NCBI GenBank assembly: GCA_963708135.1
Contig: OY970192.1
Location: 4,768,001 to 4,832,000, forward strand
Source of the DNA: an uncultured Gemmatimonadales bacterium
Lineage (GTDB): Bacteria; Gemmatimonadota; Gemmatimonadetes; Longimicrobiales; RSA9
Reading direction: 5' to 3'
DNA: 64,000 nt
In this document: one piece after another, positions 1 to 62,156 of the stretch
How positions within the stretch are numbered: the stretch's first letter is position 1
Layout: each line of letters opens with the position of its first letter
Position numbers and translations under genes: made by a program
The notes under the pieces: generated by a model
Told to the model about the DNA's origin: nothing
Databases searched by the model: none
Seen by the model: only the letters and a program-made list of their open reading frames with translations

Positions 1-3000
1 CTTCTGAAGGACTTCGCCAAGACCGAGGCGCGGGCCAAGCACATCTTCAACGATGATGCCGTCCTGCCGCTGCTCGGCAAGGTGACCGGGGTCCCCAAGC
101 AAGAGGTGGAGCGACTCGTGTACGGCCAGCTGCCGGCTCCGGTCGGCGGAGCGGCCGAGGCGGCGCTGACCGAGGAGATGGCTGATGCGCTGCTCGCCCA
201 CGAGGTCGCGGGCCGCGGGAACGCCTTCGCAGAACTCTTCCAGGTTCACATAGATGAGCGAGCGCTCGCCAACGAGCTGACCCGCCCCGAGTTCGGCTTC
301 AAAGCGAAGGAGGGGAAGACCGACACGTACTTCACCCCGAACTGCGAAGTGTCCGTCGTTGGGTTAGTCGAGGCTCTCCGTGCCTTCTCCGTTGCGGTCG
401 GGGGCGCTCCTGGCGCGGCCGGCGATTTCGTCGTCTACGCCGACCTAGAGCAGTGGGGCGAGCAGCTAGCGGCGCTCTATCCGCGCGAAGGTATCGAGTT
501 CGCGGCCGAGTCGCTCCACCGGATCTTCTCGAAGCCCGAGTACCGGGTCGATGGCACTCGGTTCATCGGGATGTCGTTTCGGCTCTGGCGAGAGTTCAAC
601 AAGCTCCTGGTTTCGGCGGCCGAGAGCGTTCGCTTCTTCAAGGACGGCAAGTACGAGGCCTCCCTCGACCAGTACGTCAGAGGCGTCAGCCAGACGAAAG
701 CGAAGCGCGGGACGGCGATCTGCCTGGGCCTCGCGAAGCTCCTCGACGACCACCTCAAGGACGATGACACGAAGCAGGTCTCGGGGCTCAAGGACGTCCC
801 GCACCAGGCCTTCGCGTCCACCTTCGGCTCGCCGTCGCTCGATGGGCTTCGGGTCACGCCGGACGGTCGGTGCACGATCGTGTACTGCCTTGACCCCCAG
901 GAGACCCTCGACAAGCTCCGCGCCTACATCGGCCTCGAGCGGGTCCACCCGATCCTTGTGCTGTTTCCGGCGAGCGCGGACGTAGCCTCGTTCGAGCTGC
1001 AGCTCGATGCCTCGCCGGCCCTTCGCCGGTGCGTCCTGACACGGCGCCTCCTGTCGCAGGAGGAGGAGTTCCTTCTCAAGTACTCGGGCCGGGGCTCGGC
1101 CTACAACGCCCACGAGGCACGCCTGAGTAAGGTCGCGAAGGGGCTTGAGGGTTCCTACCGCGACGAGTGGCAGGGGAAGAGCCGGGAGTGGGCGAACGGC
1201 CTCCGAAAGACCGGCTACCTGCTGGCGCCCATCTGGAGCCGCAAGACCGGCAACAACACGGCCGACTTCGCAAAGGGCTACCGCTACATGCTGGCGAAGG
1301 ACTGCTCGCTCGATGCGGCGGTCAACACGGCAGGCGGACCGCTCAACAACGTGGAGTTCGAGAACTGCCGGCAGGCGGCGAAGAAGAACATCGATGCGCC
1401 GGCCGCGTGGAAGTACGGCGACCTCCTCGGCGTGTTGACGACCGATGGTAGCCTGCTGCCGAAGGTGCCCCGGTGCTTCTTCGCGCTCCTCCAGGAGCTC
1501 AAGACGCAGTCGGCCGTGAGCAAGCTCGCCAACGGCTTCTTCTTCGCGGTGCCCGACAGCGAGATGAAGGCGCCGCAGCAGCTCGAGCAGATCCTCGAGG
1601 TACTCATCGGCATCGGGCTCATCCGCAAGAAGAACGACCTCTACAAGGCCGTCGACCGGACGATGCTCGAGAGCCGGCGTCAGTCGGCCTCGACCTGGCT
1701 CGAGGGAGAGTGCAAGGACTCGATCAAGAAGCTCCATGACCTGTTCCCCACCCAGGCCAGCATTCTCCTGAGCAACAACTACCCCACCGCCAAGCAGCAG
1801 CTGGTGACGGCGGAGAAGCAGATCCAGCAGGTGAGCTCGGATCACCTGACCGCGGACATCGACAGCCTGACGGAGGACTCGCTGAAGACGGTCGTCGCTC
1901 AGATCCTCGACATCGAGGAGCGCATCCTCGGGGTGTGCCCGCTCGAGATCGGCGAGACGACGTTCGACTTCGACTGCTCGCCGGCGCGAATCCTGTCGTA
2001 CGAGAACCGGTACTCGAGCCTCTCGCTGTGGGAGCGCGTCGCCTTCCTCGCGTGGCTGAAGAAGACGTTCCTCGAGACGCGGGACGAGATGATCGGCGAG
2101 ATCGATGATTTGCTCGGCGAGGCCGCCACACTCGATGAGGCCGAGGGCCACCCGTTCCCGGTCGCCCCAGTTACGCTGCCGCTGAAGGCCATCAAGTCCG
2201 AGCTCGAGAACGCCGTGAAGGGGCCTGCCGCGGCAGGCACCCAGACACGCATGGCCACGATCCCTGTGGCGACGTACACGCTCATGATCGACCAGTACCT
2301 GGTCAACTCGCAGTACGAGCACGCGTGGAAGCGCATGGACGCGCTGAAAGACCTCATCAGCAAGGAGAGGCCCGGTAGCTTCTTCGCACGGTTCAAGAAG
2401 CTCCATGAGCAGTGGTCGAAGGCGGTCAAGGACTTCAAGGCCGCCGCGTCTGCGTGGCAATCGCTGGCCGACTTCACGGCCGACGCTCCGCAGTCGGTGC
2501 AGGGCTCGCTGAACCCGCTCAAGCTCGAGGTTCAGAAGTTCCGCGGACTTGTTGAGGGGGGCCTGAAACAGCAGGTGCAGTCGCTGATCGACCAGGTGGC
2601 GGAGACCGAGCTCTTGAAGAGCTTGGAGACCGAGGTCGTGGCGACCGCGCAAGCGGTCCAGGGGCTGCCGCAGCAAGTCACCGAGAAGCTCGAGGAGTTC
2701 AAGTCGGGGCTCCGGCAGGTGATCCGGCAGAAGGAACTGCGAGCGCTCAACCGAGTCCTGAAGTCGAACGGGAAGCCGGCCAAGGCGGAGCCGACGCCGG
2801 CCGCGACCTTCGGCACCACCAAATCGCGCTACGAGGCGTTCAACGGCCAGGTCTCGCAGGAGGGGGCAGGCTTCTTCGAGGGCGCGGGCAAGGTCATTCA
2901 CTTCGGTTTGTGGGTCAACATCTCCGGCGACCTGGAGGCCGACTCCTACGACGAAGACCAGCATCCAGACCACGCCGACGCGATTCGCGAGCTCAAGGAG

Positions 3001-3036
3001 ATGAAGCTCATCCGCTCGAAGCTGGAGCTCCGATGA
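1..3036 (+). CDS. Large hypothetical protein (>1000 aa, 5'-truncated by the window), first visible gene of a putative defence operon
   Basis: Frame is open from position 1 (LLKDFAKTEARAK...). Strong GC3 codon bias and a helical/coiled-coil-like C-terminal half. Its stop overlaps the next ATG (ATGA 3033-3036). No catalytic motif recognised in the visible part. Confidence 0.85.
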   Translation, partial: LLKDFAKTEARAKHIFNDDAVLPLLGKVTGVPKQEVERLVYGQLPAPVGGAAEAALTEEMADALLAHEVAGRGNAFAELFQVHIDERALANELTRPEFGFKAKEGKTDTYFTPNCEVSVVGLVEALRAFSVAVGGAPGAAGDFVVYADLEQWGEQLAALYPREGIEFAAESLHRIFSKPEYRVDGTRFIGMSFRLWREFNKLLVSAAESVRFFKDGKYEASLDQYVRGVSQTKAKRGTAICLGLAKLLDDHLKDDDTKQVSGLKDVPHQAFASTFGSPSLDGLRVTPDGRCTIVYCLDPQETLDKLRAYIGLERVHPILVLFPASADVASFELQLDASPALRRCVLTRRLLSQEEEFLLKYSGRGSAYNAHEARLSKVAKGLEGSYRDEWQGKSREWANGLRKTGYLLAPIWSRKTGNNTADFAKGYRYMLAKDCSLDAAVNTAGGPLNNVEFENCRQAAKKNIDAPAAWKYGDLLGVLTTDGSLLPKVPRCFFALLQELKTQSAVSKLANGFFFAVPDSEMKAPQQLEQILEVLIGIGLIRKKNDLYKAVDRTMLESRRQSASTWLEGECKDSIKKLHDLFPTQASILLSNNYPTAKQQLVTAEKQIQQVSSDHLTADIDSLTEDSLKTVVAQILDIEERILGVCPLEIGETTFDFDCSPARILSYENRYSSLSLWERVAFLAWLKKTFLETRDEMIGEIDDLLGEAATLDEAEGHPFPVAPVTLPLKAIKSELENAVKGPAAAGTQTRMATIPVATYTLMIDQYLVNSQYEHAWKRMDALKDLISKERPGSFFARFKKLHEQWSKAVKDFKAAASAWQSLADFTADAPQSVQGSLNPLKLEVQKFRGLVEGGLKQQVQSLIDQVAETELLKSLETEVVATAQAVQGLPQQVTEKLEEFKSGLRQVIRQKELRALNRVLKSNGKPAKAEPTPAATFGTTKSRYEAFNGQVSQEGAGFFEGAGKVIHFGLWVNISGDLEADSYDEDQHPDHADAIRELKEMKLIRSKLELR

Positions 3037-3941
3037 AAGCGCGCATCATTGAAGCACAAACTGACCTGTTCGAGGTCGGCGTCCTGTCGCAGACGGCCGA
3101 GGTCGAGAGCATTTCGATGGACCGGATCCTGGCTGATCCGTCGGGGCCTCCGCTCGTCGTTGTTGGTGGACTGCTGGGGGCCGAGCGCCTCGCCGACATG
3201 CGTAAGCTGTCGTCCGCGCTCGCACGGGCGGGGGTCGCGGTCATCGTCGTGCCGCCGTTCACGGATCTGGATGTCGGCCGCTACTTCGAGACGCCGGTCC
3301 AGCTGGGAGTCCGACGTCGTACCGCGGAGCCGGTTGCCCGCGTCAACGAGGGAGTGCTCGAGGAGGTGCTCGGCGGAAGGGTGAAGGTCCGCTCAGACCA
3401 CTTCGTCGACACGGCTCTCGGCGCAGGCGTGCTCGCCGTGGATGCCCAGGGCAAACCCGTGCTCATCCGGTACCAGGCGACCAACACGGCCGGGCCGGTG
3501 TTCTTCTCCGCACTCCAGTTGCTCACCTACACGGCGCTGACCGACGAGGCGCATCGCCAGGCACTCCTCGGCCACCTCTTGGCGTGGACGCCGACCGTCG
3601 CGACGGAGGCCCTGGAGGCCGCCCGGCAGCCGTCGAGCCCGCCGAGGGCCGAGGCGGTGGGCGAAGGGGTGCTCGTCCTCGTGGCGCTTCTTCTCGCGGC
3701 CGGGGGCGGGCAGGCGGCGGAGCAGCTGCGGTCTCGAGCCGGGACTCTCCTTGGCGCGGACCTCAGCGCTACTGACGCCGCACGCGCCGTGGAGGAGCTC
3801 GCGCGTCGGGGCCTGCTGGCCGCCGATGCACCGGCACCGAGCGATCGCGGGGCCCTCGTCCGGTTTCTCGAGCAGCGCGGGATGCACCCGTACCTGCGTG
3901 AGCTTGGGCCCCTGCTCGCTTCCGAGGGGACGACCACATGA
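3033..3941 (+). CDS. Hypothetical protein, possible C-terminal winged helix
   Basis: ATGA overlaps at both ends. Starts MKARIIEAQ. C-terminal DAARAVEELARRGLL resembles a wHTH recognition helix and wing. Confidence 0.75.
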   Translation: MKARIIEAQTDLFEVGVLSQTAEVESISMDRILADPSGPPLVVVGGLLGAERLADMRKLSSALARAGVAVIVVPPFTDLDVGRYFETPVQLGVRRRTAEPVARVNEGVLEEVLGGRVKVRSDHFVDTALGAGVLAVDAQGKPVLIRYQATNTAGPVFFSALQLLTYTALTDEAHRQALLGHLLAWTPTVATEALEAARQPSSPPRAEAVGEGVLVLVALLLAAGGGQAAEQLRSRAGTLLGADLSATDAARAVEELARRGLLAADAPAPSDRGALVRFLEQRGMHPYLRELGPLLASEGTTT

Positions 3942-5077
3942 AGAGCATCGAGCTGGCTCGCGCACTCGCCGCGGCGATGAGCCTGCGGCTTCCCGGCACC
4001 GTCGGGAAGATCGCAAACAAGATGCGGTACATCGACTCGAAGGCCCCGCTCTTCGTGCGTGGCGGCATCATCCGCAGCATCGAGTCGCGCCGGTTCGATC
4101 GCGTCTACGCCGTTGGCGTCTCCTCCAAGAGCCGGAGCATGCCCGCCTTGGGCGGCATCCTCTATGGAGCCGCGGCGCTCCGCCACGACATCGTCGTGAC
4201 CGGCAACCAGGTGACGGAGGGTTTCCAGGACAGCCGGGTCAACATCAACGACATGAACTTTCTCGACGCCTCCGAGCGACTGGTATGGAAGGAGTACATC
4301 CTCGTCTACCAGCTCCTGACGGACCTGCTGGATTCGGACACAAAGCCGGATGTCATCTTCGTCAACATCCCGCTCCTGGTCCCACGTGCCGAGCAGAGCC
4401 TCAGCCTCGCCGAGCCCGACGTCGAGGGGGAGTGGCACGAGCTCATCGAGGTCATGGAGGCGTTCTGGCAGCGCTTCCTGCCGTCGATCTACCCGAACGA
4501 CCCGAACGGGCCGTTCCTCGTCTCGCTCCAGTCGCGCCGCGACCTCAACGCCGCTGTCTTGAACGCGTTGCGCGAGAAGGGCCTGGCGGGTTCGCCCGAG
4601 GCGATCAGCAGTGAGGCGCTGGACCTCGTGCAGAGCGAGTGGGTGCAGCTGCGGCGGGTCGGCATTCTTCGCTTTCTACGTGGTGCCCTACGTGCAGGGC
4701 ATCGGACCGCCGCCTACTACTACGAGGCGCTGGGGCGCCAGATGAAGCGCTTCGAGCCTCGAACGGTCGCTAACCACGGCCTTATCGGCTTCCACATTCA
4801 AGTGGGCCTCCGAACTCCGATCTGGAAGATCGAGACCGTCGGTGCTCCCGGGCAATGGGATTCCGAGGCACTCGACAAGCTGGCCAGCGTCACCGCCTTC
4901 CTGACCCTGAACGACAACCCGCGGATGAAACCGCTGCCGCTCTGGTATGCCGAAGAGCTCGTGAAGATGCCACGCGAGGTCCTGTCCAACTACCTGCGTT
5001 CAACCTTGGGCATGCTCAAGGACCGCGCCGTTGATCGAGCCTGGCTCGAGGGCGTTAACACCATGGATGAGGAGTGA
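3938..5077 (+). CDS. NurA-like protein, apparently catalytically degenerate
   Basis: Lies directly upstream of HerA and is about 380 aa. NurA-like layout: VYAVGVSS (canonical AVDGS), DVIFVNIPLL (canonical lDGsL) and C-terminal PLPLWYAEELVK (canonical YPxPLxxAH). Confidence 0.7.
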   Translation: MKSIELARALAAAMSLRLPGTVGKIANKMRYIDSKAPLFVRGGIIRSIESRRFDRVYAVGVSSKSRSMPALGGILYGAAALRHDIVVTGNQVTEGFQDSRVNINDMNFLDASERLVWKEYILVYQLLTDLLDSDTKPDVIFVNIPLLVPRAEQSLSLAEPDVEGEWHELIEVMEAFWQRFLPSIYPNDPNGPFLVSLQSRRDLNAAVLNALREKGLAGSPEAISSEALDLVQSEWVQLRRVGILRFLRGALRAGHRTAAYYYEALGRQMKRFEPRTVANHGLIGFHIQVGLRTPIWKIETVGAPGQWDSEALDKLASVTAFLTLNDNPRMKPLPLWYAEELVKMPREVLSNYLRSTLGMLKDRAVDRAWLEGVNTMDEE

Positions 5078-6774
5078 GCATGTTCGAAGATGACGACAAC
5101 TACATTGGCAAGCTGGTTGGCAACACCGGAGAGCCCAACAAGCTGACAATCGCGCTACGTACGAGCTTTTCGGCACGGCGCGGCGAGTTCGTGCGGGTGG
5201 CCCACCAGGAGCGGGAGTCTGAGTCGCAGATCGACGTGCTGGGCCGCGTCGTGGGGCTCTCGCGGTCGAACATCCTGTTCAGTCCGGCGCTCGGCGAAGG
5301 GATCAGTGAAGTCGAGCTGCTCCCACAGTCGCGGCTCTCGGGCGAGACCGTCTACGCGACGCTCGAACTGGTCGGCTACAAGGACCCGTATACCGGTGAG
5401 ATCCGTATCCCACGACGTCCCCTGACGCCAGGGACCAAGGTCTACGGGGTCGACTACGCCTTCCTCACGAGCTTCTACGAATTCTCAGAGGATACCAGCA
5501 TCCACCTGGGGAACCTCGTCGGCTACGAGAAAGGCGAGAACATCGTCCCGGTCTTCCTCGACGCTAACACGCTGGTGACTGAGCACCTCGCGGTGCTTGC
5601 AATGACGGGCTCGGGAAAGAGCTACACGGTCGGGCGCGTGATCGAGCGGCTCGTCTCGCAGCTCAATGCGTCAGTCGTGGTCTTCGACCCGCATGGCGAG
5701 TACGGCAAGGCCTTCCGAACCGGCAAGCTCAATTTCAACGACCGGCTCGACAAAGTGGAGGATCCTCGGGATCGGCAGAAGCTGGCGGAGATTCAGGATT
5801 CGCTCCAGCAGTTGCAGGATCGCGGGGGCGGCATCAAGGTCTACACGCCGCAGCTGCGTAGCTTCGACGAGAAGTACGCGGGGAAGAACACGCGTCTGGC
5901 GCTTCAGCTCGACCACTTCGACGTGGACGAGTTCTCGGGTGTGCTTCCTGGCCTGACGGAGCCGCAGCAGCGCGTGCTCGACGTCGCGCTGCGCTACTGG
6001 AAGGAGAACGTCGACGAGCCTCGCGACATTCAGGAGCTCTTCGGAGTCCTCGACGATCTCGATCGCCTGAAGGAGTGGGTGACGGAGTCCGGCAGCCAGG
6101 GCGAGGCGAACGCGCTGCGCGGAGGAAGTGCCAACATCGCCGCCATCCGTCTTCGGCGCATGATCAACGAAGCCCAGAGCTTCTACTCGCGCGCGGCTGG
6201 TGACCCCTTCGACGTGTACGAGATGGTCGGCGACGATAACGCCGAGGCCGGACGGCTCTGCATCATCGACCTCCAAGGGCTCTCGAACACGGCAAGGCAG
6301 GTCATCGTCGCGCTCATCTCGAGCGAGCTCATGAAGGCGGCGGCCGACAAGCAGCGTCCGACCCGACCGGTGTTCATCGTCTACGAGGAAGGGCACAACT
6401 TTGCGCCCGCCGGCGAAGCGGCGATCTCGAAGAACATCATCAAGCGCATCGCGGCCGAGGGCCGAAAGTTCGGCGTCGGATTCGCGATCGTCAGCCAGCG
6501 GCCGAGCAAGCTCGACTCCGACGTGACGAGTCAGTGCAACACCATCGTCGCGATGCGCATCAAGAACCCCGACGACCAGCGGTTCATCCAGAAAACCTCC
6601 GACTACTTCTCTGCAGCGGATCTGGCGGAGCTTCCGACGCTATCGACCGGCGAGGCACTGATCTGCGGACGCGCGATCATCGCGCCGCTCGTCGTGAAGG
6701 TCGGCACCAAGGCGCTCATTCACGGCGGTGAGTCACCACGCGTGTGCGAGCGGTGGGGGCGGGCGAGCGGATGA
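5074..6774 (+). CDS. herA: HerA/FtsK-superfamily ATPase (HAS barrel + DUF87)
   Basis: N-terminal YIGKLVG HAS-barrel region, Walker A AMTGSGKS, VFDPHGEY, Walker B FIVYEEGHNFAP, and EGRKFGVGFAIVSQRPSKLD. Start is GTG 5074 or ATG 5080. Confidence 0.9.
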   Translation: MSMFEDDDNYIGKLVGNTGEPNKLTIALRTSFSARRGEFVRVAHQERESESQIDVLGRVVGLSRSNILFSPALGEGISEVELLPQSRLSGETVYATLELVGYKDPYTGEIRIPRRPLTPGTKVYGVDYAFLTSFYEFSEDTSIHLGNLVGYEKGENIVPVFLDANTLVTEHLAVLAMTGSGKSYTVGRVIERLVSQLNASVVVFDPHGEYGKAFRTGKLNFNDRLDKVEDPRDRQKLAEIQDSLQQLQDRGGGIKVYTPQLRSFDEKYAGKNTRLALQLDHFDVDEFSGVLPGLTEPQQRVLDVALRYWKENVDEPRDIQELFGVLDDLDRLKEWVTESGSQGEANALRGGSANIAAIRLRRMINEAQSFYSRAAGDPFDVYEMVGDDNAEAGRLCIIDLQGLSNTARQVIVALISSELMKAAADKQRPTRPVFIVYEEGHNFAPAGEAAISKNIIKRIAAEGRKFGVGFAIVSQRPSKLDSDVTSQCNTIVAMRIKNPDDQRFIQKTSDYFSAADLAELPTLSTGEALICGRAIIAPLVVKVGTKALIHGGESPRVCERWGRASG

Positions 6775-7397
6775 TGCGCGGCCGCTCGACATCACCGTCG
6801 GACTTGGTGTTCGGCGGGATCACCAACCGCGACCTGATGGTCGAGCATTTCCCGATGCTGCTGTCTTCGGGGATTCCGGACATGGGGCTTACGGTTCACT
6901 CACACTTCCTCACGTTGCTGGCGAGCGCGGGGCAGTTGCAGGGCTACTCTGCCGTGGCGGAGTGCCCAATCTGTTGGACGCGCGACAATGGTCTTGGAGA
7001 CGTCCGCGTGGACTCGGTGTGGTTCGAGAAGCAATCGGGCGAAGCCTCGCTCGCGTTTGAATTCGAACGGTTCGAGCGCGGCGACAAAGGGAAGCTGCGG
7101 GGCAAGGTCGAGAACCTTGCAGTCGCGTCGACCGCGGCCCCGAGTCTGAAGCTGTGTGTCCTGATCTACTGGGTGCGCAGCGGCTCGGCTCCGCGGAGCA
7201 TGGACGCGATCATCGCGAGCTACCGCGACGGCTTCCGGCGACGTGGCATTGTTGTGGCCCCGGCGCGCACGCCGTTGATGATCATCAAGTGCGTGATGCG
7301 CCCGGTACCCAATTCCGACCGGCTGGTGTTCGGCGAGTTCTTGCGCGACGAGCGCAACGAGAGGCTTGCGCTGGGCAGGGCAGAGCCGTGGCGCTGA
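6771..7397 (+). CDS. Small putative PD-(D/E)XK-like nuclease-fold protein
   Basis: ATGA overlap with the herA stop. Pattern AECPI...RVDSVWF...LAFEFE resembles the E...D...ExE restriction-endonuclease-like core. Confidence 0.6.
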   Translation: MMRGRSTSPSDLVFGGITNRDLMVEHFPMLLSSGIPDMGLTVHSHFLTLLASAGQLQGYSAVAECPICWTRDNGLGDVRVDSVWFEKQSGEASLAFEFERFERGDKGKLRGKVENLAVASTAAPSLKLCVLIYWVRSGSAPRSMDAIIASYRDGFRRRGIVVAPARTPLMIIKCVMRPVPNSDRLVFGEFLRDERNERLALGRAEPWR

Positions 7398-8968
7398 TCC
7401 TATTCCGTGGCAAACCCGGCGAGGAGCTGGGCGATCGGTTTCGCTTGCTGGCCGAGCTCGGCAAAGGGAGCTTCGGCGAGGTGTGGCAGGCACGTAGACT
7501 GAAGGATGGTGCCACGGTCGCGATCAAGATCCCGAAGGACCAGGAGAAGGGCGAGGAGGTGCTTCGCAAGGAGTCGGACATCATCAGGGACATTCACCAT
7601 CCGAACATCGTTCGCGTCCAAGGCTTCCACAACATCAGCGAGCTTTTCGTGATAGAGATGGAGTTCGTCAATGGCTATGACTTGGCGAAGGTCCTCGATA
7701 GCGTCAGTACCCGGGCGCCGCTCACCTTCGAACAAATGCTCGAATGGACGCTGCAGATTCTCGACGGTTTGGCTGCCGTCCACGCCGCGAACATATCGCA
7801 CAACGATCTGAAGCCGCAGAACATCCTCGTCGATAAGGCGTCCGGGGTAGCGAAGATCACTGATTTCGGATTGAGCCGCCGGCTCGAGGATGTCTGGGTG
7901 TGGACCAAGCGCCACGGCACGGAGGCGTACATGGCCCCTGAGGTCGCTCTCGAGGGGAAGCGCGCTCGGGACGTGACCGACATCTACTCGATCGGCGTCC
8001 TACTCTACGAGATGGCCACGGGACGGCTGCCGTATTCTACCCCGCATCAACTGCTCACCGGGGTGCAGATCGCAAAGCCTCGTGAGGTCAACCGCGATGT
8101 GCCCGCCGACCTGGAGGACGTGATCCTTCGTGCGATGGCGCGGCGGCCCGAGAGCCGTTTTCAGACCTGCGGATCGATGCGCGCCGCCGTGCAAACATGC
8201 CTTGTCCGGCTGCGCGCCGACGCGGCAACGGCAGCCATGCCGGCTCGCTCGGAGCCCAGCCAGCTCGGCTTCCGGCCGCCCTCGTCCAGCCCGCTTTACT
8301 ACCTCGAGCTTGCTAAGCAACGACTGGCCGCGGGCGATGCTGAGGGCGCCCTGGGGGCGGCGGAGGCGGCTGTGGATCGAAGCGACGGCCATCCGCAGTA
8401 CCTGCGAATGCTCGGCGGCATCTGCTTACGTTTGGGTTACGACCGCAAAGCAGCCGAAGCATACGAGCAGCTGCTCGCCGCCTTCGATCGGGGCTACCCG
8501 GTGGAAGGACATCTACGAAGGGACGTGTTCGAGCGACTTGGTCAGCTGTACATCAACCTTCAGCGGTACGGAGAAGCCGTAGCGATCTACGAGCGCCTCG
8601 TAGACGCCCTTGACCGGCCATTCTCCCGCTTCCGACTGGCTGTCGCTGTGGGTCTCGATGGCGACTATGGGCGCGCGATTCAGTTGCTCGAATCCGTTCG
8701 AGCAGAGCGGCCAGACGCCGTCGTCGTCTACTCCAAGCTCGGGTGGGCCCACGCGCTCAACGGGAACGATCGTGTCGCGCTCAGCTTCTACAACCAGGCC
8801 CTGGCCCGGGACGCCTTTGACCTGTTCAGCCTCTTCGAGCTCGGGAAGTACTACTACATGCTTGGTAGCCGCCGACGCGCTCGGGAGTACTTCGAGCGGG
8901 TCATGGACGCAGACAAGCAGGGGGGCTACGCCGATCGCGTGCGTGAGCTCACTAACTCCAGTGCGTGA
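7388..8968 (+). CDS. Ser/Thr protein kinase with C-terminal TPR repeats
   Basis: LGKGSFGEV, VAIK, HNDLKPQNIL, DFG and GTEAYMAPE motifs, followed by TPR-like helical repeats. GTG 7388 overlaps the previous gene. No TM segment seen. Confidence 0.9.
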   Translation: MALILFRGKPGEELGDRFRLLAELGKGSFGEVWQARRLKDGATVAIKIPKDQEKGEEVLRKESDIIRDIHHPNIVRVQGFHNISELFVIEMEFVNGYDLAKVLDSVSTRAPLTFEQMLEWTLQILDGLAAVHAANISHNDLKPQNILVDKASGVAKITDFGLSRRLEDVWVWTKRHGTEAYMAPEVALEGKRARDVTDIYSIGVLLYEMATGRLPYSTPHQLLTGVQIAKPREVNRDVPADLEDVILRAMARRPESRFQTCGSMRAAVQTCLVRLRADAATAAMPARSEPSQLGFRPPSSSPLYYLELAKQRLAAGDAEGALGAAEAAVDRSDGHPQYLRMLGGICLRLGYDRKAAEAYEQLLAAFDRGYPVEGHLRRDVFERLGQLYINLQRYGEAVAIYERLVDALDRPFSRFRLAVAVGLDGDYGRAIQLLESVRAERPDAVVVYSKLGWAHALNGNDRVALSFYNQALARDAFDLFSLFELGKYYYMLGSRRRAREYFERVMDADKQGGYADRVRELTNSSA

Positions 8969-9095: not shown

Positions 9096-11375
9096 TCAGC
9101 GGAGACGTGCCCCAACTTCTTGGGCAGCTGCCTCCACCTCAGCGACCACTTCCCTGAGGAAGAGGTTTCGGTCGGGTGACGGGACGACATCCGGGACAGG
9201 TGCTGCCGGCTCGTAAATGTCGTCACCGATGATCCGCGCACGCACGAAGGTTGAGCCAGTGCCGTGCTTGTCGTAGGCGTCTCGCCATTCGTTCGCGCGA
9301 TCCCGCCACACACGGCGCGTTGACAGCTCCATCAGTCGGCTCGCGATGTTCTCGGCGATGGCGTCGTACGTGGCCTGCTCCTCGTCTTCAGTAGGTTCCG
9401 GCCCCTCCCATTCAAGCGGGTTCTGGACGAAAACGTAGATCTTCTGGGTCAGCTCGCGCCGGAGATCAGCAACGGGCTTCAACGTGTCGTATTCGTCCGC
9501 CATCCCGGTGGCAAGCCGCCTGCTCAACGCCTTGACGCGGGTCCAGTGTTCCTTGGTCATAGCCACGCCAGACTCCAGGCCCAGCCGCTGCCGCCATGCA
9601 TGCTGGAACGCTTCGGCTGCGCTGCGGATCCCGAGTACGAGATCCATTCTATCATATACCGGTTGAGCAGATGCCGGCTGCGGACGATCTACCACGTCTT
9701 CGATCGCTTGCAGCAGGCCGCGAAGTTGCTTTACCGTTCGCCTTCCTGCGGCGGTATTCGTTGCCAGTGGCTCGTGTAGGCCGCCTAGGAAGAAGCGTGC
9801 ACCATCTAGGCGCTTTCGCACTGCACGCTCCGCATGCGCACCCAGTTCCTCGCCGAACGCAGCCAGCACGTTCTCGGCCGACGCCAGAACGTGTTGAGCC
9901 TTTGCATCAGCGTTAGGGAGGTTGTCACCTTTCACCTCATCGAAATGGGTGAACGCGACGATGAGCTTACGCGCGTTGCCAGTGGATATGATTTCGCGCA
10001 TTGCCGCGACGGGCGCGGCCTGCATCGGCTGCGTTGCGTTGTCGATCAACAAGACGGCGTCGACCACTTCAATGCGACGGCTCACTCCTGTTGAGACAGA
10101 GGATGCTGATGTCGGAGTGTGGCCGAGTCCTTCACCGTCCAGGATGACGAGCTTCGGAGGACTCTGCCCCTCCAGCCATGTGGGTGTGAAGGGGCCGGAT
10201 ACCCGAACTCCGTTGACCAGGGGAGTCAGGAGGCGACCGTAGTAGGGCGCGTAGTTGCTGGAGAACCTGGTGATCGCCTTCAGGAAGTCACGGCGAGCAT
10301 CGGTATCCCATTCGGCGTGCCATGAAAGCGGCCAGCCTTGCTTTGTCTTCTTGACCGTACCCTGCGGTAGGAGTTCGAAGCGCTTCTCGATCTCGTCCAT
10401 CAGAGCGTCGGCAACAGCGTGGAACTCCTCGTCGTCCCGGAGCAGATTATCGAGCTCTTCCTCGAACAGTTCTTCGAGGACACGCTCGTCCCCTTCATCG
10501 GCAGCGGCAAGCTCGTCCCGGAGGCGCTCTCCGAGGCGCTGTGAGACACTTCGCAGCTGAGACACAACGCGCTGGAGCAGTTCTGCGGTTACGTCCATGT
10601 CAATGTCGCCGAGTTCCTCCGCGGTAAAGAGCTCGTCGTCGCCCTGGTCGTCTTCGTCCTCGTCATCAAGGCCGAAGGCGACGCTCTTCACGCTCGGCCC
10701 CGTCCCGAGGACGTAGCTGAAGCGATACCGCTGGTTCACATGGTTCAAGAGGCGCCGCAGGATCGTTGCGTCGTCCGCGCCCTTTGATGCGGCCAGTACA
10801 GCCGCCGAAATGCATTCATTCAGGTACTCTCGGATCTCGTCGGAAGTCGCAAATGTGACAATCGCCCGCCATGGCCCGTCGTCGACGATGATCTCGGTAT
10901 CGTGAATGGTCGTCTTTGCCGTTGAGGTTGACGGAAAGCGCTCCGTCGCCGGGTCGGTTCCGATCAGTTGCCGCACGACAGTTGTCTTGCCGGCTCCCGT
11001 CGTGCCCAACAGCAGCACACGACGATACCCGTCAGGCGAGGAAGGCGGCAGAGCAACCGCTTCGTCGCGGATCCGAGCAAAGTCGACCTCCTCGGGCACC
11101 ATCTTATCGAAAAAGATGTTGACGACTCTCTGGTCGAAACGCCGTTCGGCCTCCGGACGGGCGGCTGCGTCATGGAACAGCGTGTCCCGGAGGAGTTCGT
11201 TGAGTTGATCGCGCAGTCGCCCTGCCTCGGCCACGTCGCGGGTCCCGAGACCTTTGCGCACACGAACGCCGGGCTTTCCTGTCGCCTCATCTCGGCGTAC
11301 AGGATGCCGGAAGATCACGGTGTAGCCGGACCGGCCCTGAGTCTGGCTCAGACTGGCGGTGTACCGCTTGCTCAT
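9096..11375 (-). CDS. Dynamin/GBP-like P-loop GTPase with an N-terminal putative DNA-binding domain
   Basis: G1 GTTGAGKT, G2-like STAKTT, G3 LDGEG, G4-like THFD. ATG at 11375 with GGAGG upstream. N-terminus ...RVRKGLGTRDVAEAGRL resembles integrase N-terminal arm-binding-type domains. Confidence 0.75.
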   Translation of the reverse strand: MSKRYTASLSQTQGRSGYTVIFRHPVRRDEATGKPGVRVRKGLGTRDVAEAGRLRDQLNELLRDTLFHDAAARPEAERRFDQRVVNIFFDKMVPEEVDFARIRDEAVALPPSSPDGYRRVLLLGTTGAGKTTVVRQLIGTDPATERFPSTSTAKTTIHDTEIIVDDGPWRAIVTFATSDEIREYLNECISAAVLAASKGADDATILRRLLNHVNQRYRFSYVLGTGPSVKSVAFGLDDEDEDDQGDDELFTAEELGDIDMDVTAELLQRVVSQLRSVSQRLGERLRDELAAADEGDERVLEELFEEELDNLLRDDEEFHAVADALMDEIEKRFELLPQGTVKKTKQGWPLSWHAEWDTDARRDFLKAITRFSSNYAPYYGRLLTPLVNGVRVSGPFTPTWLEGQSPPKLVILDGEGLGHTPTSASSVSTGVSRRIEVVDAVLLIDNATQPMQAAPVAAMREIISTGNARKLIVAFTHFDEVKGDNLPNADAKAQHVLASAENVLAAFGEELGAHAERAVRKRLDGARFFLGGLHEPLATNTAAGRRTVKQLRGLLQAIEDVVDRPQPASAQPVYDRMDLVLGIRSAAEAFQHAWRQRLGLESGVAMTKEHWTRVKALSRRLATGMADEYDTLKPVADLRRELTQKIYVFVQNPLEWEGPEPTEDEEQATYDAIAENIASRLMELSTRRVWRDRANEWRDAYDKHGTGSTFVRARIIGDDIYEPAAPVPDVVPSPDRNLFLREVVAEVEAAAQEVGARLR

Positions 11376-11387
11376 TTGCCGCCTCCA

Positions 11388-11470
11388 CGTTGTTCCTTTG
11401 TTGTTCCGACGGAAGAGTAAGGCCGTAGCAGCCGGCACGCAAGAGTCTCGGGAACAACCAAGGAACAACG
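11388..11470. promoter_or_regulatory. 20-bp inverted repeat (1 mismatch, 43-nt loop) in the GTPase leader
   Basis: cgttgttcctttgttgttcc (11388-11407) versus ggaacaaccaaggaacaacg (11451-11470). Each arm holds two GGAACAAC units. Confidence 0.75.
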
Positions 11471-21160: not shown

Positions 21161-24100
21161 CTATGCGGCCGTTCGCGAGCCCGGGGCCGGGAGCCGGACG
21201 AGAACCTGATGGTCCATCCCGTCGTCCACGAGGGGGATGTCGGGGCCGTCGAGGACCCGGCCATCGAGCGTCACCTCCGCCCGTGTGTCGGCCGCGAATC
21301 TGCCAGGCTCCTCGACGACGATCGTGTATCTCGCGCTGCCGAAGCGATAGTCGATGGTCAGCTCCGGCCAGGCTGCGGGCACGCGCGGCTCGATGCGCAG
21401 CACGTTGCCGCGGCGGTCGAAGCCGAGGATGGCCTCGAGTCCCACACGATACATCCAGCCCGCGGCGCCCGTGTACCAGGTCCAGCCGCCCCGACCCACG
21501 TGGCCGGGCGCCGTGTAGACGTCCGCCGCGATGACGTACGGCTCGACCTTGTAGGTCGCGACTTCCTCGGGGGTCCGGGTGTGCAGCAGCGGATTGAGCA
21601 TCTGGAACAGCTCGAACGCCCGGCCGCCCTCGCCCGATCGCGCGGTGGCGAGCACGGCCCAGGCGGCGGCGTGCGTGTACTGGGCGCCGTTCTCCCGTAC
21701 GCCGGGCAGATACCCCTTGATGTAGCCGGGATCGCGCGGCGACTTGTCGAACGGCGGCGCGAGCAGGCGGATGAGCCGGGCATCCTCGTCCACCAGGTGC
21801 TCCTCGAGGGCGCGCATGGCGCGGGCCTGGCGCTCCGGCGCGCCGGCGCCGGAGATCACGCTCCAGCTCTGGGCGATGGAGTCGATGCGGCATTCATCGC
21901 TCCGGCTGGAGCCGAGCGGCGTGCCGTCGTCGAAGAAGGCGCGCAGGTACCAGTCGCCGTCCCAGCCGTGCGTTTCCACGGCGGACGCGTACGCGTCCGC
22001 ACGTCGCCGCAGCTCGCCGGCGACCTCCTCATCGCCGCGCCCCGCGGCTCGGACGGCGAACGAGCGGAGACTCGCGATGAGGAACCATGCCAGCCATACG
22101 CTCTCGCCGCGTCCCTCAACGCCGACGCGGTTCATGCCGTCGTTCCAGTCGCCCGTGCCGATCAGCGGCAGGCCGTGGGGGCCCGAGGTGGACGCGCGCC
22201 GGAGCGCGCGCAGGCAGTGCTCGTAGACGCTGCCGTGCTCGTCGCTGATACCCGGCACATCGTAGATCTCGTCCTCCCCCGGCTCGAGCGGGCGCATGGT
22301 CAGGAAGGGCACGTACTCGTCGAGCACCGAGCCATCGCCGGTCCGGGTGACATACTCGTCGACGACCCAGGGCAGCCAGGCGAGGTCGTCGGAGAAGCGG
22401 GAGCGCACGCCGGCGCCCGTGTGGGGATGCCACCAGTGCTGGACATCGCCCTCGAGGAACTGGCGTGCGGCGGCGCGCAGGATATGCTCGCGGGCCAGCG
22501 CCGGCTCCGCGTGGACGACGGCGAGGACGTCCTGGAGCTGGTCGCGGAACCCGTAGGCGCCGCTGCTCTGATAGAGAGCGGAACGGGCCCACAGCCGGCA
22601 GGACAGCGTCTGATACGGCAGCCACCGGTTGAGCAGCGCGTCGAAGGCGGCCTCGGGGGTGCGCACGGTGATGACCGACAGGCGCTGGCGCCACTGTTCG
22701 ACGGTACGCCCGGCCGCCGCCGTGGCGGCGTCGATGCTGCGGAACAGGCTCGCGAGCTGGCGCGCGTCGGCATCGGTGCCGCCGGCGCCGAGGGCCACGA
22801 CCACATCGCGTGACTCGCCGGGGGCGAGGACGAGGACGCACTGGAGCGCGGCGCACGGGTCGAGGCCGGTACCGGTCGTGCCGGAGAGGTCACGGCCCCC
22901 GAGGGCGGCGGGCCCCTGCACGCTCCCGTTCCGGCCGAGGAACTCGCGGCGGTCGCCGGTGTGGCCGGTGACCGGCTCGCTCAGCGCGCAGAACGCGACG
23001 CGGCCGTGGAAGTGCGGGTCGAAGTGGTTCCGGGCGAGAACCGCGCCGAGCCCCGGCTCGAAGGTGGTGCGCACGTGGTGCTGCGTGCGCTCGCGCTGTG
23101 CGCCGAGCGTCCATTCCACGTACGCGGTCAGGCGGATCCTGCGCTCGACGGCGTCGCGGTTCGTGACCCGGAGCATGGACAGCCGCACCGGCTCGTCAGC
23201 GGCCATGGTCAGCGTGAGGCGGGTGGCGATGCGGTTGCGCTCGGCCTCGAACACCGAGATGCCGGCGCCGTGGCGCACCGTGTACTCGGTCTCGTGTCCG
23301 AGCGGTGCGGGCGTGGCGCTCCACAGGTCGCCAGACGCCTCGTCCCGGAGGTAGAGAACATCCGAGATCGGGTCACTGACAGGATCGTTGTGCCACGGGG
23401 TGAGTCGGAAGAAGTAGCTGCTGTCCGCCCAGGTGCAGCCCGCGCCGCGCTCGCTGACGATGAACCCGCCGCGCCCGTGCGCGACGACGTTGACCCAGGG
23501 GGCGGGCGGCAGGGCGTCGCCTGCGACACGGATCACGTAGTCGCCGTTCGCGTCGAGGCCGCCCGTTCCATTGTCGAACCCGAGGCCGGCGCGACGGCCG
23601 TCGAGGGCGGCCTTCCGCGCCGGCCGGTCTGCCGGCGGTCGGACGGGCCGGCGGGCGTGGGTCCAGCGCTCGAGGGCGGAAAGGGGGGTCGCCTGTCGCT
23701 CGAGAATCCGGGGCGCCGGCGCGGACGGCGCGGTGTCGGGCTGGCCGGTCGCCGGCTCCATGAGCAGGTCTTCGAGGTGCGTGAGCGAGCGACCGTCGCA
23801 CGGGAGGACGAGCCGGGCCGTGGCTCGCAGCATGAGCAGCGTCTCCGCATCCAGCGACTCGACGTTCCGGAGAAAGGCACCGCCGGGCCGATCCATGGCC
23901 GTGCCGCCGATGGCGAACAGGGTCTCCATGATGCGGTCCTGCAGCTCCTGCCGGTAGGACGCGGGCTGCGCGAAGAGGATCACCAGGTCAACCACGAGGC
24001 CGCGGCGGCGCCAGAACTGATGCGCGGCCCCGACCTGCCGCAACGTCGGGAGCCCGTCCACGCCATCGATGGTGGCGAGCACGATGCGCCGGTCACCGGA

Positions 24101-27100
24101 TATGCCGGCGGACCACAGCAGCGGCTGCGCGCCGCGGTTGCGGTCTACTTCCTCCGGGCTCGCGCGGAGATCCCGGTGGGGAAAGAGCAGGCAGCCGGCG
24201 AGCTCCTGAAAGATGGCGGCGTCGGCGGGCGTCAGGTCCCGCTCGCGCAGCTCCACCTGTTGGGACGCCCATGCCAGGTCCAGGGCGCGCTGCGCCGTAT
24301 GCGGATCGTGATACCGGTCGGCCAGGCGGAATGCGTCCTCGCGCGTGGCGGCGACCAGCGTCGTGAAGGTGACCGTGGCCGAGTCTCCGGGGGCGAGTCG
24401 GAGCCGCGTCCGCAGCGCGAAGATCGGGTCGAGCACGGCACCGGTGGTGCCGGAGAGCGGACCGGCACCGTCGAGGGCTGCGGGTGCGCGGGTGGTCCGG
24501 CCGCGGCCGATGAAGCGGGCGCGGTCCGTCTCGCAGGAAACGGGGCCGACCCGGCCGGTGCCGGCGTCCATCACGTGCACGCACCAGAGGGACGGCTCCG
24601 CCGCGGAACGCGGGCGCCGCGTGGCGGTGAGGGCCGAACACCACTCGTGCCATTCCGTCTCGACGAACAGGTTGGCGAAGGCCGGGTGCGCCCGATCGGC
24701 CTCCGCCGGACCGAGCACCACCTCGCCGTAGCTCGTGAGCTCGACCTCCCGCGGGGAATGGGCATGATTCGTGACCGTCACGCAGCGCACCTCGGCGGCG
24801 TCGTCGGGCACCACGGTGATCTCGGTGCGCGTCTCGATGTCTCCATCGGCGCGGTTGAACGTCACGCGGTCGCTGGCGAGCAGCGCCCGGTACGCATCGG
24901 CTGGAGCGCACACCGGCTGGTGGGCCGTCGACCACACCCGGTCGCTGGTGACATCCCTCACGTAGCAGAACTGGCCCATGGCGTCCGTGGTGCCGTCAGC
25001 GCGCCAGCGGGTGACCGCCATGTCCTCGTACCGGGAGAACCCGGACCCCGTGTGCGTCACCATCACGGTGTAGGGCTGACGGCCGAGCAGCGCGACGTGC
25101 GGCCGCGGGGTGTCGGGCCGCGTGAGCTCGCGCACGGCCTGATTCTCGTCCTCCGGGCGTGAAAGCGCCCCGGCGGCGCCCGCCGGCCTGGCGGGGTGCA
25201 GCACGATGCGGCGCGGGATCCGCTCCTGGAGCAGGAGCTCGGCCGACTGCACGAGGGGATCGGAGTGGAACCGTCGTTGCCACACGTCATCGGTGAGCAC
25301 GTTCGTCAGTGCGACGAGGCTCATGCCGATGTGGTGGGCCATGTAGTTGCGGACCACGGCGTGATCCTCGCCTGGCTCCGGCCGGGCGTAGTCGATGGCG
25401 TCGCGGAAGCCATAGGGCCCGAGGGCCTCCATTCCGGCGAGCACGGAGAGGTTCTCCAGCGCGCGATCCGGCTCCACCAGCAGGGCCAGTGCGGAGGCGT
25501 ACGGAGCGATCACGAGGTCACGGCCGAGCCCGCGCTTGAGGCCCAGGTCCGGCACGCCGAACGCCCGGTACTGATAGGTGAGCTGATGATCGCGCAGGTT
25601 GTACGCGCTCTCGCTCACTCCCCAGGGGACGCCGCGCCGGGCGCCGTAGGCGATCTGCCGCCGGACCGCACCGCGGTAGGTCTGGTCGAGGAGCGTGGAC
25701 GGATAGGAGCGCATGACAAGCGCCGGCATCAGGTACTCGAACATGCTGCCGCTCCAGGAGACGAGCGCGGTGGCGCCCGACGCGTGGGTCAGCGAGCGAC
25801 CGAGCCGGAACCAGTGGTCGAGCGGCACGTCGTTCTTCGCGACCGCGACAAAGCTCGCGACGCGCGACTCCGAGGCGAGCAGGTCGTAATGCGACACATC
25901 CAGCGACTGGCTGGCGAGCTGATAGCCGATGGAGAAGAGCTCGCGATCCCCGTCGAAGAGGAAGCGGAAGTCCATCTCGGCGACGTAATCGCCGGCGCGG
26001 TCGGCCAGCGCGTCCAGCCGGGCGGGCAGCTCGGGACCGGCCGCCCCCTCGTCTCCGGGCCTGGGGCGGGCATCCAGACAGGCCTGCCGCACGGCGAGCA
26101 GGTGGCCCGCGAGGTTGCCGCTGTCCACCGTGGAGATGTAGGCCGGCTCGAGGACGCTCAGGTCGTGCAGGTCGTACCAGTTGAAGAAGTGCCCGCGGAA
26201 GCGCCGCATGCGCTCCAGGGAACGGAACACGCGCTCCAGTCGCCGCGTCATCTCCTCGGTGGTGATGAAGCCGAGGTCGCGGGCGCTCCCGATCGCGAGC
26301 AACTGAAGGCCGATGTTCGTCGGCGACGTGCGCATGGCGACGGCGGCGCCGGGCTCTTCCTGCACGTTGTCCGGCACCAGCCACTGCGTGCCGGCAGCGA
26401 CGAAGTCGTCGAAATAGCGCCAGTGCCGCCGCGCGAGGTCCCTGGCCGTGGCGGCCTGTGGCGCCGTGAGCTGTCGGCGCCGTGGCACGGCCGGGCGGCC
26501 GAGGGCATGGGCGATGGCGGGCGACGCGGCCCACAGCAGGGCTAGGACACCGATGGCCAGCACATCGGGCCACCAGAGGACCCCCGCGCCCGGGCCTGCC
26601 GACCGGGCGATCGCGATCAGTGCGACGGCCACCCCGGCGATTGCCGCCGGCGACATCGCCCGCCACACGAGGGCCCGGCCCGTACGCGGGTCTCGTTCCG
26701 CGGTCGATGCGGTCTGCCACTCGAGCAGGTTCCGCCTCGTGACACCGAGGCGCCAGAGGGTGCGGATGATCGCATCGGCCGACACCCACGCCTGGTGGGG
26801 CAGGAAGGCGATGGCCAGCAGGAGCTGCCGCACGGCCGTGCGCGCGTCGCGGGCGACGGATGCGTAGTACGCGCGCCACGAGCGGTCGAGCGGCGGGCGC
26901 AGCGCGGCGAGCAGGACCGAGACGATCCAGGGCGCGCCGACAATGGTCAGTGCCAGCGCGGTCCAGCGGAGCGCCGAGCCCGGTAGCAGCACCCAGCCGG
27001 CGAAGAGAAAGAGCACCAGCCCGATCTCCACCGTGCTGCGCCGCAGGTTGTCGAAGATCTTCCAGCGCGAGAGGAGCGACAGCCGGTTGGCCTCCGGCCC

Positions 27101-42037: not shown

Positions 42038-42220
42038 TCGGGCCGAGCCCCCGCCACGCACGGCAACGCCCACGAGCGATTGGCTGGGCCATCGCTCCTC
42101 CGTCGGTCGGCAAGATTGGGATGGATTGTGGGAAAGACTCCGAGCTCATTCGGGGCCAGCAAAGAGCATAGCGGGAAGTCACGCGGGGGGCAACGCCGCC
42201 GTGGCCGGGCTATAGCATGG

Positions 42221-49039: not shown

Positions 49040-49519
49040 TTTGTCCCTTTCGTGTGGGTCCGCCGGTTCGGCGGACGGGTGACATCACACCAGCGCACCA
49101 GGCGCGAGTGGTCGGTCACCGGGGGGCTCGGAGGAAGGAGGGCGGCGGGCACAGGCCCGAGGCAGCCTGGCCCTCGCCAGCGGGTCGGGTCGGCGGGGGC
49201 GCCCGCAGCTACCCGGACCGTCCCGGCGCGCGTGGGTGCGCTCCGAGGCCGCGGGCGCTCTCCACGGAAGCGATGCCGTTCTCCATGGCCCCCGGCGACG
49301 AATACATCTCGCTCTGCCCGACCACCTGTGGCAAGGAGCTGAGCGCCCCAGTCCAGGCGTCGAGGCGACGCTGGCATCAGACGAGTCGAGCGGCTCGGAG
49401 CTTGGCGCGGTGCCGGGCCCCTGACGCCCGGTGGCGAGGAACTCGCTCGAGGCCGCCTTGCGGCGCGGCGCCGCCGGTGGGATCATGAGCCGGGGCACAC
49501 AGTGGGGTCGGAGGACGCA

Positions 49520-61365: not shown

Positions 61366-61593
61366 CTTGACTGTGACAACACACTGCTCGACAACGACCG
61401 CGTGCAGGTCGATCTCAAGGAGCAGCTCACGCGCGAGTTCGGGGGCGAAAGCCGGGATCGGTATTGGAGCATCCTCGAGCAGCTGCGGTCCGAGGTGGGA
61501 TACGTGGATTACCTGGGCGCCTTGCAGCGCTACCGGCTCGACGCCCGCAGCGACCCCCGATTGCTGCTGATCTCCTCGTTCCTGGTGGACTAT

Positions 61594-62064: not shown

Positions 62065-62156
62065 GACCTCGTCGTCGATTGCGACAACGGGTGCGACAAC
62101 CTCTTCCGCGAGCAGGGCTGGGGTGCGGCGCTGCGCGGGCTGGACTCAAGGGGCGC

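Follow-up and report, generated by a model that had tools for sequence, protein, structure and literature searches.

A HerA-coupled NurA-fold protein family without the first catalytic aspartate, encoded in a MADS-like gene island

The window analyzed here, a stretch of 64,000 nucleotides from an uncultured Gemmatimonadales bacterium (assembly GCA_963708135.1, contig OY970192.1, positions 4,768,001-4,832,000), carries at its left end the terminal part of a 13-gene island in which one gene, here called C, encodes a partner that is dedicated to a HerA ATPase and translationally coupled to it. Judged by its predicted structure, the C protein is a genuine NurA-fold protein, although by sequence it is barely NurA-like. 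Comparison of homologous sequences shows that the C family lacks the aspartate of strand beta-1, where NurA has its first catalytic residue and where a small residue is found instead, and that it also lacks the conserved C-terminal histidine; the aspartate that follows strand beta-4 (D143) is almost always retained. A first-pass annotation, made from the letters of this DNA, had called C a NurA-like protein devoid of both catalytic aspartates next to an intact HerA, and had suggested a nuclease-dead ring with cutting passed to the downstream gene. The fold and the first of the two losses held, and the second did not. The explanation that we favor, by a modest balance of probability, is that a ring of NurA-fold C proteins without two-metal cutting serves HerA and that the product of gene E cuts, within a defense-like island.

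Gene C encodes a protein of predicted NurA fold

Coordinates are those of the window, except where they carry the prefix L022, which denotes a fetched stretch that spans the upstream DNA and in which position 7146 corresponds to contig position 4757146. The C open reading frame (ORF) is intact, as had been claimed; its start overlaps the stop of the upstream gene B (ATGA at 3938) and its stop overlaps the GTG start of herA, or gene D (GTGA at 5074-5077), within a series of GTGA/ATGA overlaps that chains genes A-B-C-D-E. The strings on which the first-pass annotation relied (AVGVSS, FVNIPL and a Glu in place of the C-terminal His) are all present in the translation, as A58-V-G-V-S-S63, F141-V-N-I-P-L146 and E339. 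Gene C and the sites within it discussed below are as follows.

3938..5077, + strand: gene C, protein of predicted NurA fold, 379 codons
4115..4126, + strand: codons G60-V61-S62-S63, strand beta-1, place of the first catalytic Asp of NurA
4238..4243, + strand: GTCAAC, which is GTCGAC in 14/14 related loci; private D102N
4364..4366, + strand: codon 143, AAC (Asn), directly after strand beta-4; this record alone has A at 4364, relatives having GAC (Asp)
5054..5059, + strand: GTTAAC, which is GTCGAC in 14/14 related loci; private D374N and a silent change

At the sequence level, the C protein gave no match in Pfam even at E<=10, and none in NCBIfam or PADLOC. A HMMER search over 1.84 billion representatives collected 107 proteins at E<=1e-3, and among the 26 full-length family members three are touched by the Pfam NurA family (PF09376; best E 7.4e-4). 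When the family profile was compared to the sequences of the PDB, the top entry was Sulfolobus NurA (2ygk), with a weak E of 0.6, and phmmer searches of the same sequences with two distant members (P0167 and P0138) returned no match at E<=10. The Pfam NurA family itself has no match in the window's own genome and is found in 2 of 201 genomes of the phylum.

By contrast, the AlphaFold2 model of C, calculated from an alignment of 26 sequences (predicted local distance difference test, pLDDT, 92.4; predicted template modeling score 0.88), is clearly related to NurA. All Foldseek hits at ranks 1-10 are NurA chains, the best being 2ygk_A at 2e-12. VIA-align gave Z values of 20.7 to 2ygk_A (295/319 residues aligned, root-mean-square deviation 4.7), 19.6 to NurA of T. 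kodakarensis within its complex with HerA (9x1n_G) and 17.9 to P. furiosus NurA (3tai_B), followed by chain G of TdpAB (15.7 for 8wfd_G, and 14.0), TM1739 (1zup_A, 13.4) and D. radiodurans NurA (7f6d_G, 12.8). References outside NurA scored lower, with Endonuclease V (5aoy) the best of them at 11.5 and several Argonaute PIWI domains at about 10-11.

The likeness to the NurA structures (2ygk, 3tai/3tal/3taz, 9x1l-n, 1zup and 7f6d; Z 20.7-12.8) extends over nearly the whole chain, and the proteins are of similar size. It also includes a C-terminal P-x-P-L..A motif that aligns with PFPLLKA of 2ygk, the Asp that the C family conserves after beta-4, and the position of gene C, which adjoins and overlaps herA.

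Catalytic positions across the C family

In the topology of the model, strand beta-1 comprises residues 55-70 and strand beta-4 residues 139-142, and G60-S63 and N143 fall where RNase-H-fold nucleases bear their first and third acidic residues. In the profile alignment, D58 of 2ygk lies on S62, and its PFPLLKAH segment on P332-L-P-L-W-Y-A-E339. The first catalytic Asp of NurA (Sso D58, Tko D49) is not found in C, which has S62 at this place in the window. Position 62 is D in a single one of 25 distant full-length relatives, the other 24 having A, S, T or C; it is acidic in 1/43 fragments and in 0/119 close homologues, which read GVSS or GISS in every case. Altogether, the beta-1 Asp is absent from all but 2 of the 187 family sequences examined.

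At the C-terminus, position 339 is aligned with what we take to be the catalytic His of NurA, and here the family carries R, K, Q, E or N; the window has E339, as do 118 of 119 close relatives. The conserved His of the NurA active site is thus not found in the C family, and the Glu pointed out in the first-pass annotation belongs to a column in which no His is conserved.

Position 143 is a different case. It is Asp in all 119 close homologues and all 15 related loci, in 23/25 distant full-length relatives and in 23/28 fragments, and only 1 of the 25 distant relatives has Asn. The alignment of homologues thus confirms the beta-1 loss as a conserved trait and contradicts the claim that both aspartates have gone, since close homologues keep the second one around a fold that is indeed NurA/RNase H-like. 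The residues that are invariant in the family are P186, R256, G302, P332 and P334, and no acidic column is among them. Gene C is under strong purifying selection, with ratios of nonsynonymous to synonymous substitution rates (dN/dS) of 0.05-0.11 at dS 0.28-0.68.

The asparagine at position 143 of this record

Asn143 results from a G>A change that is private to this record and affects the CpG of a GTCGAC site, the codon being AAC here and GAC in the relatives, apart from the single distant one with Asn. Error or not, Asn143 is by this comparison neither a property of the C family nor a design feature. We consider it rather probable that it is an assembly or basecalling error and not a very recent, real CpG transition.

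Sequencing-run contigs at least 99% identical to the window (X1), which may come from the window's own sample, were compared to it over parts of 3000-7500. Five differences were found (4241, 4364, 5056, 5057 and 7086), each at a CpG: A or T in the window stands against G or C in X1 as well as in three less closely related runs, and former GTCGAC sites account for three of these places. If X1 is the window's own sample, the five differences amount to a disagreement between two data sets of one organism. Runs X2, X4 and X6, which have G at 4364, are only 88-95% relatives.

We surveyed GTCGAC sites in genes A-D of the window against 14 loci, and at 17 sites GTCGAC is read in at least 7 of the 14. 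The window reads at these 17 ancestral sites are:

GTCGAC (unchanged): 4
GTCAAC: 7
GTTAAC: 1
GTCGAT: 2
CTCGAC: 1
GCCGAC: 1
ATCGAC: 1

In the eight G>A cases, a conserved Val-Asp becomes Val-Asn (gene A D175, D226, D298, D790 and residue 1321; gene C D102, D143 and D374), and since the proteins that harbor them evolve at dN/dS ~0.05, selection has not filtered these changes. The five remaining losses comprise four that are silent by codon frame and one Val to Ala change in gene B, and the two of these five that fall within the compared parts of X1, at 3192 and 6642, are common to the window and X1.

Elsewhere in the genome, the two 16S copies (contig ~103,800 and ~1,596,240) differ at one position, AAACGATGG versus AAACAATGG (ACGA versus ACAA). 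We note that no 23S-like sequence follows the copy at 103,801 when it is aligned with the other copy. An insertion sequence (IS; DUF4372 + DDE_Tnp_1) is present in at least six genome copies that are 99.2-99.8% alike; six copies differ at 13 of 1326 columns, four of which show recurrent C/T or G/A differences at TCG, one of these four being a GTCGAC/GTTGAC/GTTAAC site. Within the island, two genes upstream of the window, the g363 orthologue and the EVE gene, are frameshifted relative to L006, L008, L011 and L015 (at L022 ~12446 and ~14948), and share the identical change TGGCA[C>TT]CTGACGC, in both instances within a paralogous W-H-L-T coding stretch. Systematic error, gene conversion and real inactivation are all conceivable origins of this shared change.

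Two candidate signs of error were rejected. A genome-wide systematic error at GCACCTGA does not account for the frameshifts, since 196 copies remain and only 7 copies of GCATTCTGA are present; and the strand asymmetry of GTCAAC (989) versus GTTGAC (726) is matched by CTCAAC/GTTGAG, which has the same replichore-linked pattern.

Motif-linked substitution errors are documented for nanopore-only assemblies in the accessible text of PMC10687267. Several features of the genome nevertheless speak against reading N143 as an error: GTCGAC is avoided genome-wide (1062 observed vs 2842 expected, 0.37), GTCAAC exceeds expectation only 1.17-fold, and four ancestral GTCGAC sites of the operon are unchanged. 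The avoidance is mostly synonymous, as seen from the codon pairs GTC-GAC (646) and GTG-GAC (3080) and from GAT making up half of the Asp codons after GTC, and suggests a long-standing SalI-type restriction pressure in the host; the incoming island nonetheless carried 17 GTCGAC sites.

HerA, the candidate cutter and the genes of the island

The gene that follows C encodes an intact HerA, as claimed earlier, with matches to Pfam DUF87 (1.5e-38), HerA_C and HAS-barrel and to the PADLOC HerA model (2.3e-58). It remains far below the cut-offs of the NCBIfam equivalog for HerA of double-strand break repair (helicase_HerA, NF040819; 202.6 bits versus 970) and of the anti-phage HerA models (143.7 and 109.9 bits versus 850 and 800), and by these profiles it is a HerA-family ATPase outside all named NCBIfam subfamilies. 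Its dN/dS values are 0.03-0.05 over the dS range given for gene C. Complex prediction for HerA with C, run twice from family alignments and without controls, scored 0.00, which speaks neither for nor against a complex.

Directly after herA lies gene E, the best candidate for the blade according to its predicted fold. The AlphaFold2 model (pLDDT 87.0) has structural neighbors that form a homogeneous list, nearly all of them PD-(D/E)xK restriction enzymes, and the Atlas leads are MunI (0.85) and PDDEXK_11 (0.83). Residues E64, D81, E97 and E99 are invariant in 11/11 orthologues, forming an E...D...ExE set. Unlike BamHI/OkrAI/BstYI-type enzymes, E is part of a HerA operon and is not beside a methylase of its own. 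No sequence family was matched in Pfam, PADLOC or NCBIfam. The suggestion in the first-pass annotation that cutting has passed downstream thus has a concrete candidate in E.

Gene F, which ends the conserved block, matches Pfam Pkinase (1.8e-49) and TPR families as well as PADLOC mad6 (1.5e-64) and PD-T4-6, and reaches 165.4 bits with NCBIfam MAD6 (NF047741; cut-off 460). Its 526-aa form occurs in 5 loci. The motifs of gene F are HND..N and DFG, and both kinases of the island have HRD/HND and DFG motifs. At the other end of the A-F block, gene A is a P-loop ATPase (Walker A GDWGLGKT, Walker B IIVDEVE) that found no match in Pfam or PADLOC and has an Atlas lead to AAA_22/STAND-type clusters (0.91).

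The island covers ~19.8 kb, from L022:7146 to window position 8968 (contig 4757146-4776968), with the gene order M, S, g152, kinase 1, g363, EVE reader, g391, A, B, C, HerA (D), E, F. Its genes other than C are:

L022:7146-9221: M, Type-I-like N6-methyltransferase (PADLOC MTase_I 8.1e-115, mad2 7.4e-17)
L022:9221-10678: S, specificity subunit, Type-I-like (3.6e-37; PADLOC mad5 1.9e-10)
L022:10678-11136, + strand: g152, 152-aa gene between S and kinase 1, no assigned function
L022:11115-12269: kinase 1, Ser/Thr kinase (Pkinase 1.7e-26)
L022:12402-13493: g363, 363-aa gene, N-terminus frameshifted
Upstream of g391: EVE gene, Mrr_N-EVE-DUF7669, frameshifted, its tail visible as a 263-aa ORF
L022:15785-16960: g391, 391-aa gene, no assigned function
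L022:16957 (1043 nt before the window) to window 3036, + strand: gene A, P-loop ATPase, 1359 aa, with its last 1011 codons inside the window (1..3036)
3033..3941, + strand: gene B, 302 aa, no assigned function (no match in Pfam, NCBIfam or PADLOC); ATGA overlaps with A and with C
5074..6774, + strand: gene D, HerA ATPase, 566 aa; HAS barrel, Walker A GSGKS and Walker B VYEEGH intact
6771..7397, + strand: gene E, 208 aa, predicted restriction-endonuclease-like (PD-(D/E)xK) fold; ATGA overlap with herA
7388..8968, + strand: gene F, Ser/Thr protein kinase with C-terminal TPR repeats, 526 aa

The g152 protein has no Pfam or PADLOC match. It begins MNVLGIAPSSTGFKWALLDG, which by eye resembles the N-terminal strand of a RuvC-type RNase-H-fold resolvase with Ala for Asp, and on this resemblance g152 might be another degenerate RNase-H-fold protein of the island.

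Spread and surroundings of the island

A scan of one genome per species yielded 16 loci from five phyla, in all of which genes A-F are syntenic and herA follows C. The hosts are Actinomycetota (Amycolatopsis, Micromonospora, Streptomyces, Actinomadura, Saccharothrix, Actinokineospora and Actinacidiphila), Myxococcota, Gammaproteobacteria, Syntrophobacteraceae and Anaerolineae. The C protein is 92-96% identical in 14 loci, remaining nearly unchanged from Actinomycetota to Myxococcota and Gammaproteobacteria, and 76% and 53% identical in one locus each; in the 14 loci, gene A products are 87-95% and gene B products 70-84% identical. At the nucleotide level, the identity of gene C to the 14 loci is 0.855-0.928. 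The high identity of C across phyla, together with the pattern of dS and dN, indicates recent cross-phylum transfer under strong constraint. A plasmid was considered as the vehicle and is not supported, as tblastn of C against 72,556 plasmids gave no match.

On its left, the island is flanked by a copy of the IS described above (L022:2571-3740, - strand); a second copy within the window (60183-61352, + strand) lies beside a C-terminal fragment of G6PD (61285-62259). Between the IS and the intact M gene, L022:4168-6833 (+ strand) holds a second, apparently truncated methylase, in which N6_Mtase covers only residues 311-405, and a specificity-like ORF with lower GC content at third codon positions; these M/S-like ORFs are perhaps what is left of a copy that was older or had been rearranged. 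Directly after the island, a convergent gene (9096-11468, - strand) encodes a 790-aa P-loop NTPase with weak matches to nSTAND5, AAA_22 and mad8 (4e-4), and has no conserved counterpart next to the island in the other 16 loci.

Further into the window, 49502-51961 (+ strand) encodes an 819-aa protein, the genome's only other one with a DUF87 match above the Pfam cut-off. Its likeness to HerA/DUF87 is confined to a short P-loop segment (2.5e-8), and it is possibly a translocase of the FtsK/TraB type. A 2734-aa GH94/glycosyltransferase protein that is cyclic-glucan-synthase-like (21161-29365, - strand) lies within ordinary-looking chromosome, two tandem Ser/Thr kinases with PD40 beta-propeller repeats are encoded at 36681-42073 (- strand), and the rest of the window also holds a multicopper oxidase.

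Comparison with known systems

In its genetic setting, C differs from NurA encoded with mre11-rad50, since it resides in a 13-gene methylase/kinase island, and its HerA partner scores far from the repair HerA equivalog, as described above. The combination of a methyltransferase, a specificity subunit, a Ser/Thr kinase and a HerA-like ATPase in one operon is reminiscent of MADS (methylation-associated defense system, mad1-mad8), which is the closest system with a name. The arrangement would act as a HerA-NurA module set within a restriction-modification-like defense system. According to the accessible parts of 10.1101/2023.03.30.534895 (Maestri et al.) and PMC13662399, MADS is an eight-gene operon that includes a methylase, a specificity subunit, a kinase and an 'ATPase-nuclease module MAD7-MAD8'; the accessible part of the former also lists Streptomyces among the genera in which it is found.

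PADLOC matches in the island are to mad2 and mad5 (E values as listed for M and S), to mad6 (gene F as above, and 4.4e-29) and, for HerA, to mad8 (4.7e-29), and mad1, mad3, mad4 and mad7 found no match among the 19 proteins scanned or the 26 members of the C family. The island has no OLD-type MAD3/MAD4 pair, and contains beyond the MADS-like set a further kinase, an EVE reader, the ATPase of 1359 aa and the restriction-endonuclease-like gene. By the PADLOC and NCBIfam models we class it as MADS-like in composition, not as MADS.

TdpAB (8wfd/8wet) pairs a HerA-family hexameric motor with an effector, and its chain G is among the structural neighbors of C. We take TdpAB, SIR2-HerA and DUF4297-HerA to be two-gene systems with an active effector; the island differs from them in its NurA-like partner without beta-1 Asp and in its much larger operon. 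HerA 'capture systems' and BREX-related systems are other HerA-anchored islands, none of which has the same gene set in the descriptions accessible to us. A literature search returned papers on MADS, SIR2-HerA, BREX-related and Dnd systems; neither the island nor a NurA lacking the first Asp was described among the results, the domain calls of MAD7 in MADS lying outside the coverage of the search.

Discussion

The favored explanation can be phrased as a sequence of steps. The C family would have lost the canonical two-metal nuclease chemistry of NurA; C would form a NurA-type ring on the HAS face of HerA, and would guide or separate the DNA that HerA pumps; the BamHI-like product of gene E would cleave this DNA; the mark set by M and S, together with the EVE reader, would serve to distinguish self from non-self; and the reaction would be licensed by ATPase A and the kinases, its timing and its DNA targets being set by the kinases and the methylation/EVE module. 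In the accessible text of PMC12977600, the D49A substitution in T. kodakarensis NurA abolishes cleavage, and HerA-NurA(D49A) keeps its DNA-stimulated ATPase and strand separation activities. This precedent supports, as an idea, a non-cutting NurA ring on HerA, and by analogy a non-cutting ring with its blade in the downstream gene is plausible. We advance as a more tentative proposal, possible but not probable, that the island is a previously undescribed MADS-related multi-gene system, in which a NurA-derived ring would serve as a DNA gate or strand separator alongside a BamHI-like cutter, kinases, a STAND/AAA ATPase and self-marking through an N6-methyladenine (m6A) methylase and EVE, and whose cassette moves between phyla.

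A number of results weigh against the favored explanation. The mapping of residues onto NurA follows strand topology and the weak profile alignment to 2ygk, and not superposed residues. When the profile of the C family was set against that of canonical bacterial NurA proteins, a clade assembled from L004 plus 21 of the 120 matches listed, the probability was 0.2 and only a spurious C-terminal stretch was aligned. For gene E, the best Foldseek match is the restriction-endonuclease-like 3ijm_A at 5.8e-3, with nothing below 1e-3, and the VIA-align scores are middling (BamHI Z 8.1, then OkrAI, BstYI, SfsA and NucC, the BamHI/OkrAI/BstYI group spanning 8.1-7.4); the spacing of its acidic residues seems to resemble that of Glu77, Asp94, Glu111 and Glu113 in BamHI. 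The island looks like a horizontally spreading defense system, its defensive function being read from gene content. Finally, no acidic residue of the C family is better conserved than D143 (92% in distant members), and D107 (80%), D98 (72%) and D/E105 are also common among the distant members. One would hardly expect a ring of purely structural function to conserve acidic residues in this way, which allows for catalysis of a non-canonical kind.

Indeed, C could be an active nuclease with a non-canonical site, in which the metal would be bound by D143 jointly with D98, D105/D107 and, for the close clade, E339, with Ser/Thr 62-63 helping through a water molecule; HerA-C would then be the true cutter, and Asn143 an error or an inactivating hit. 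The conservation of these residues (D98 is present in 119/119 close relatives), the strong purifying selection on C, the TdpAB chain G as a structural neighbor and the naming of MAD7-MAD8 as an ATPase-nuclease module in the accessible part of PMC13662399 all fit this alternative. It has to contend with the near-complete absence of the very Asp whose loss kills T. kodakarensis NurA, with acidic columns of which none other is invariant, with an E339 that is not conserved beyond the close clade, and with a complete restriction-endonuclease-type site encoded next door in E; we judge it unlikely. Less likely again is that Asn143 is real and that this copy of the island is decaying or has been switched off, as could result from the deamination of methylated CpG cytosines within WCGW/GTCGAC sites. 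Frameshifts in g363 and the EVE gene, the eight Asp to Asn changes, the avoidance of GTCGAC by the host, the recurrent CpG transitions of the IS copies and the IS and truncated M/S genes at the flank would all agree with decay. Against it, the X1 contigs, otherwise identical over the compared parts, have none of the five changes; the two frameshifts share one C>TT change within an identical 14-nt word, a pattern that looks systematic and not like random decay; a 16S copy carries the same kind of change where the other reads ACGA; and replacement changes are not in excess elsewhere in C and HerA. That C is a NurA that adaptively lost both catalytic aspartates, as the deposited reading of S62 and N143 would have it, is very improbable given that N143 occurs in none of the 119 close homologues or 15 loci, and Asn in a single distant relative.

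The record also carries a caution for readings made from sequence alone, as a 'lost catalytic residue' here goes back to a single-base discrepancy that is linked to a motif (GTCAAC in place of GTCGAC) and is seen repeatedly throughout this genome record. At the level of the family, if the favored explanation is true, C is the natural counterpart of the laboratory D49A/D58A mutants of NurA: the NurA ring would have a function for HerA without cutting, and the 'motor gate' and the 'blade' would be split into two genes. The island, of which the 2023 PADLOC models recognize only four generic parts, has spread over at least five phyla with little protein change, and is thus a good candidate for a new, experimentally tractable defense system in Streptomyces and its relatives.

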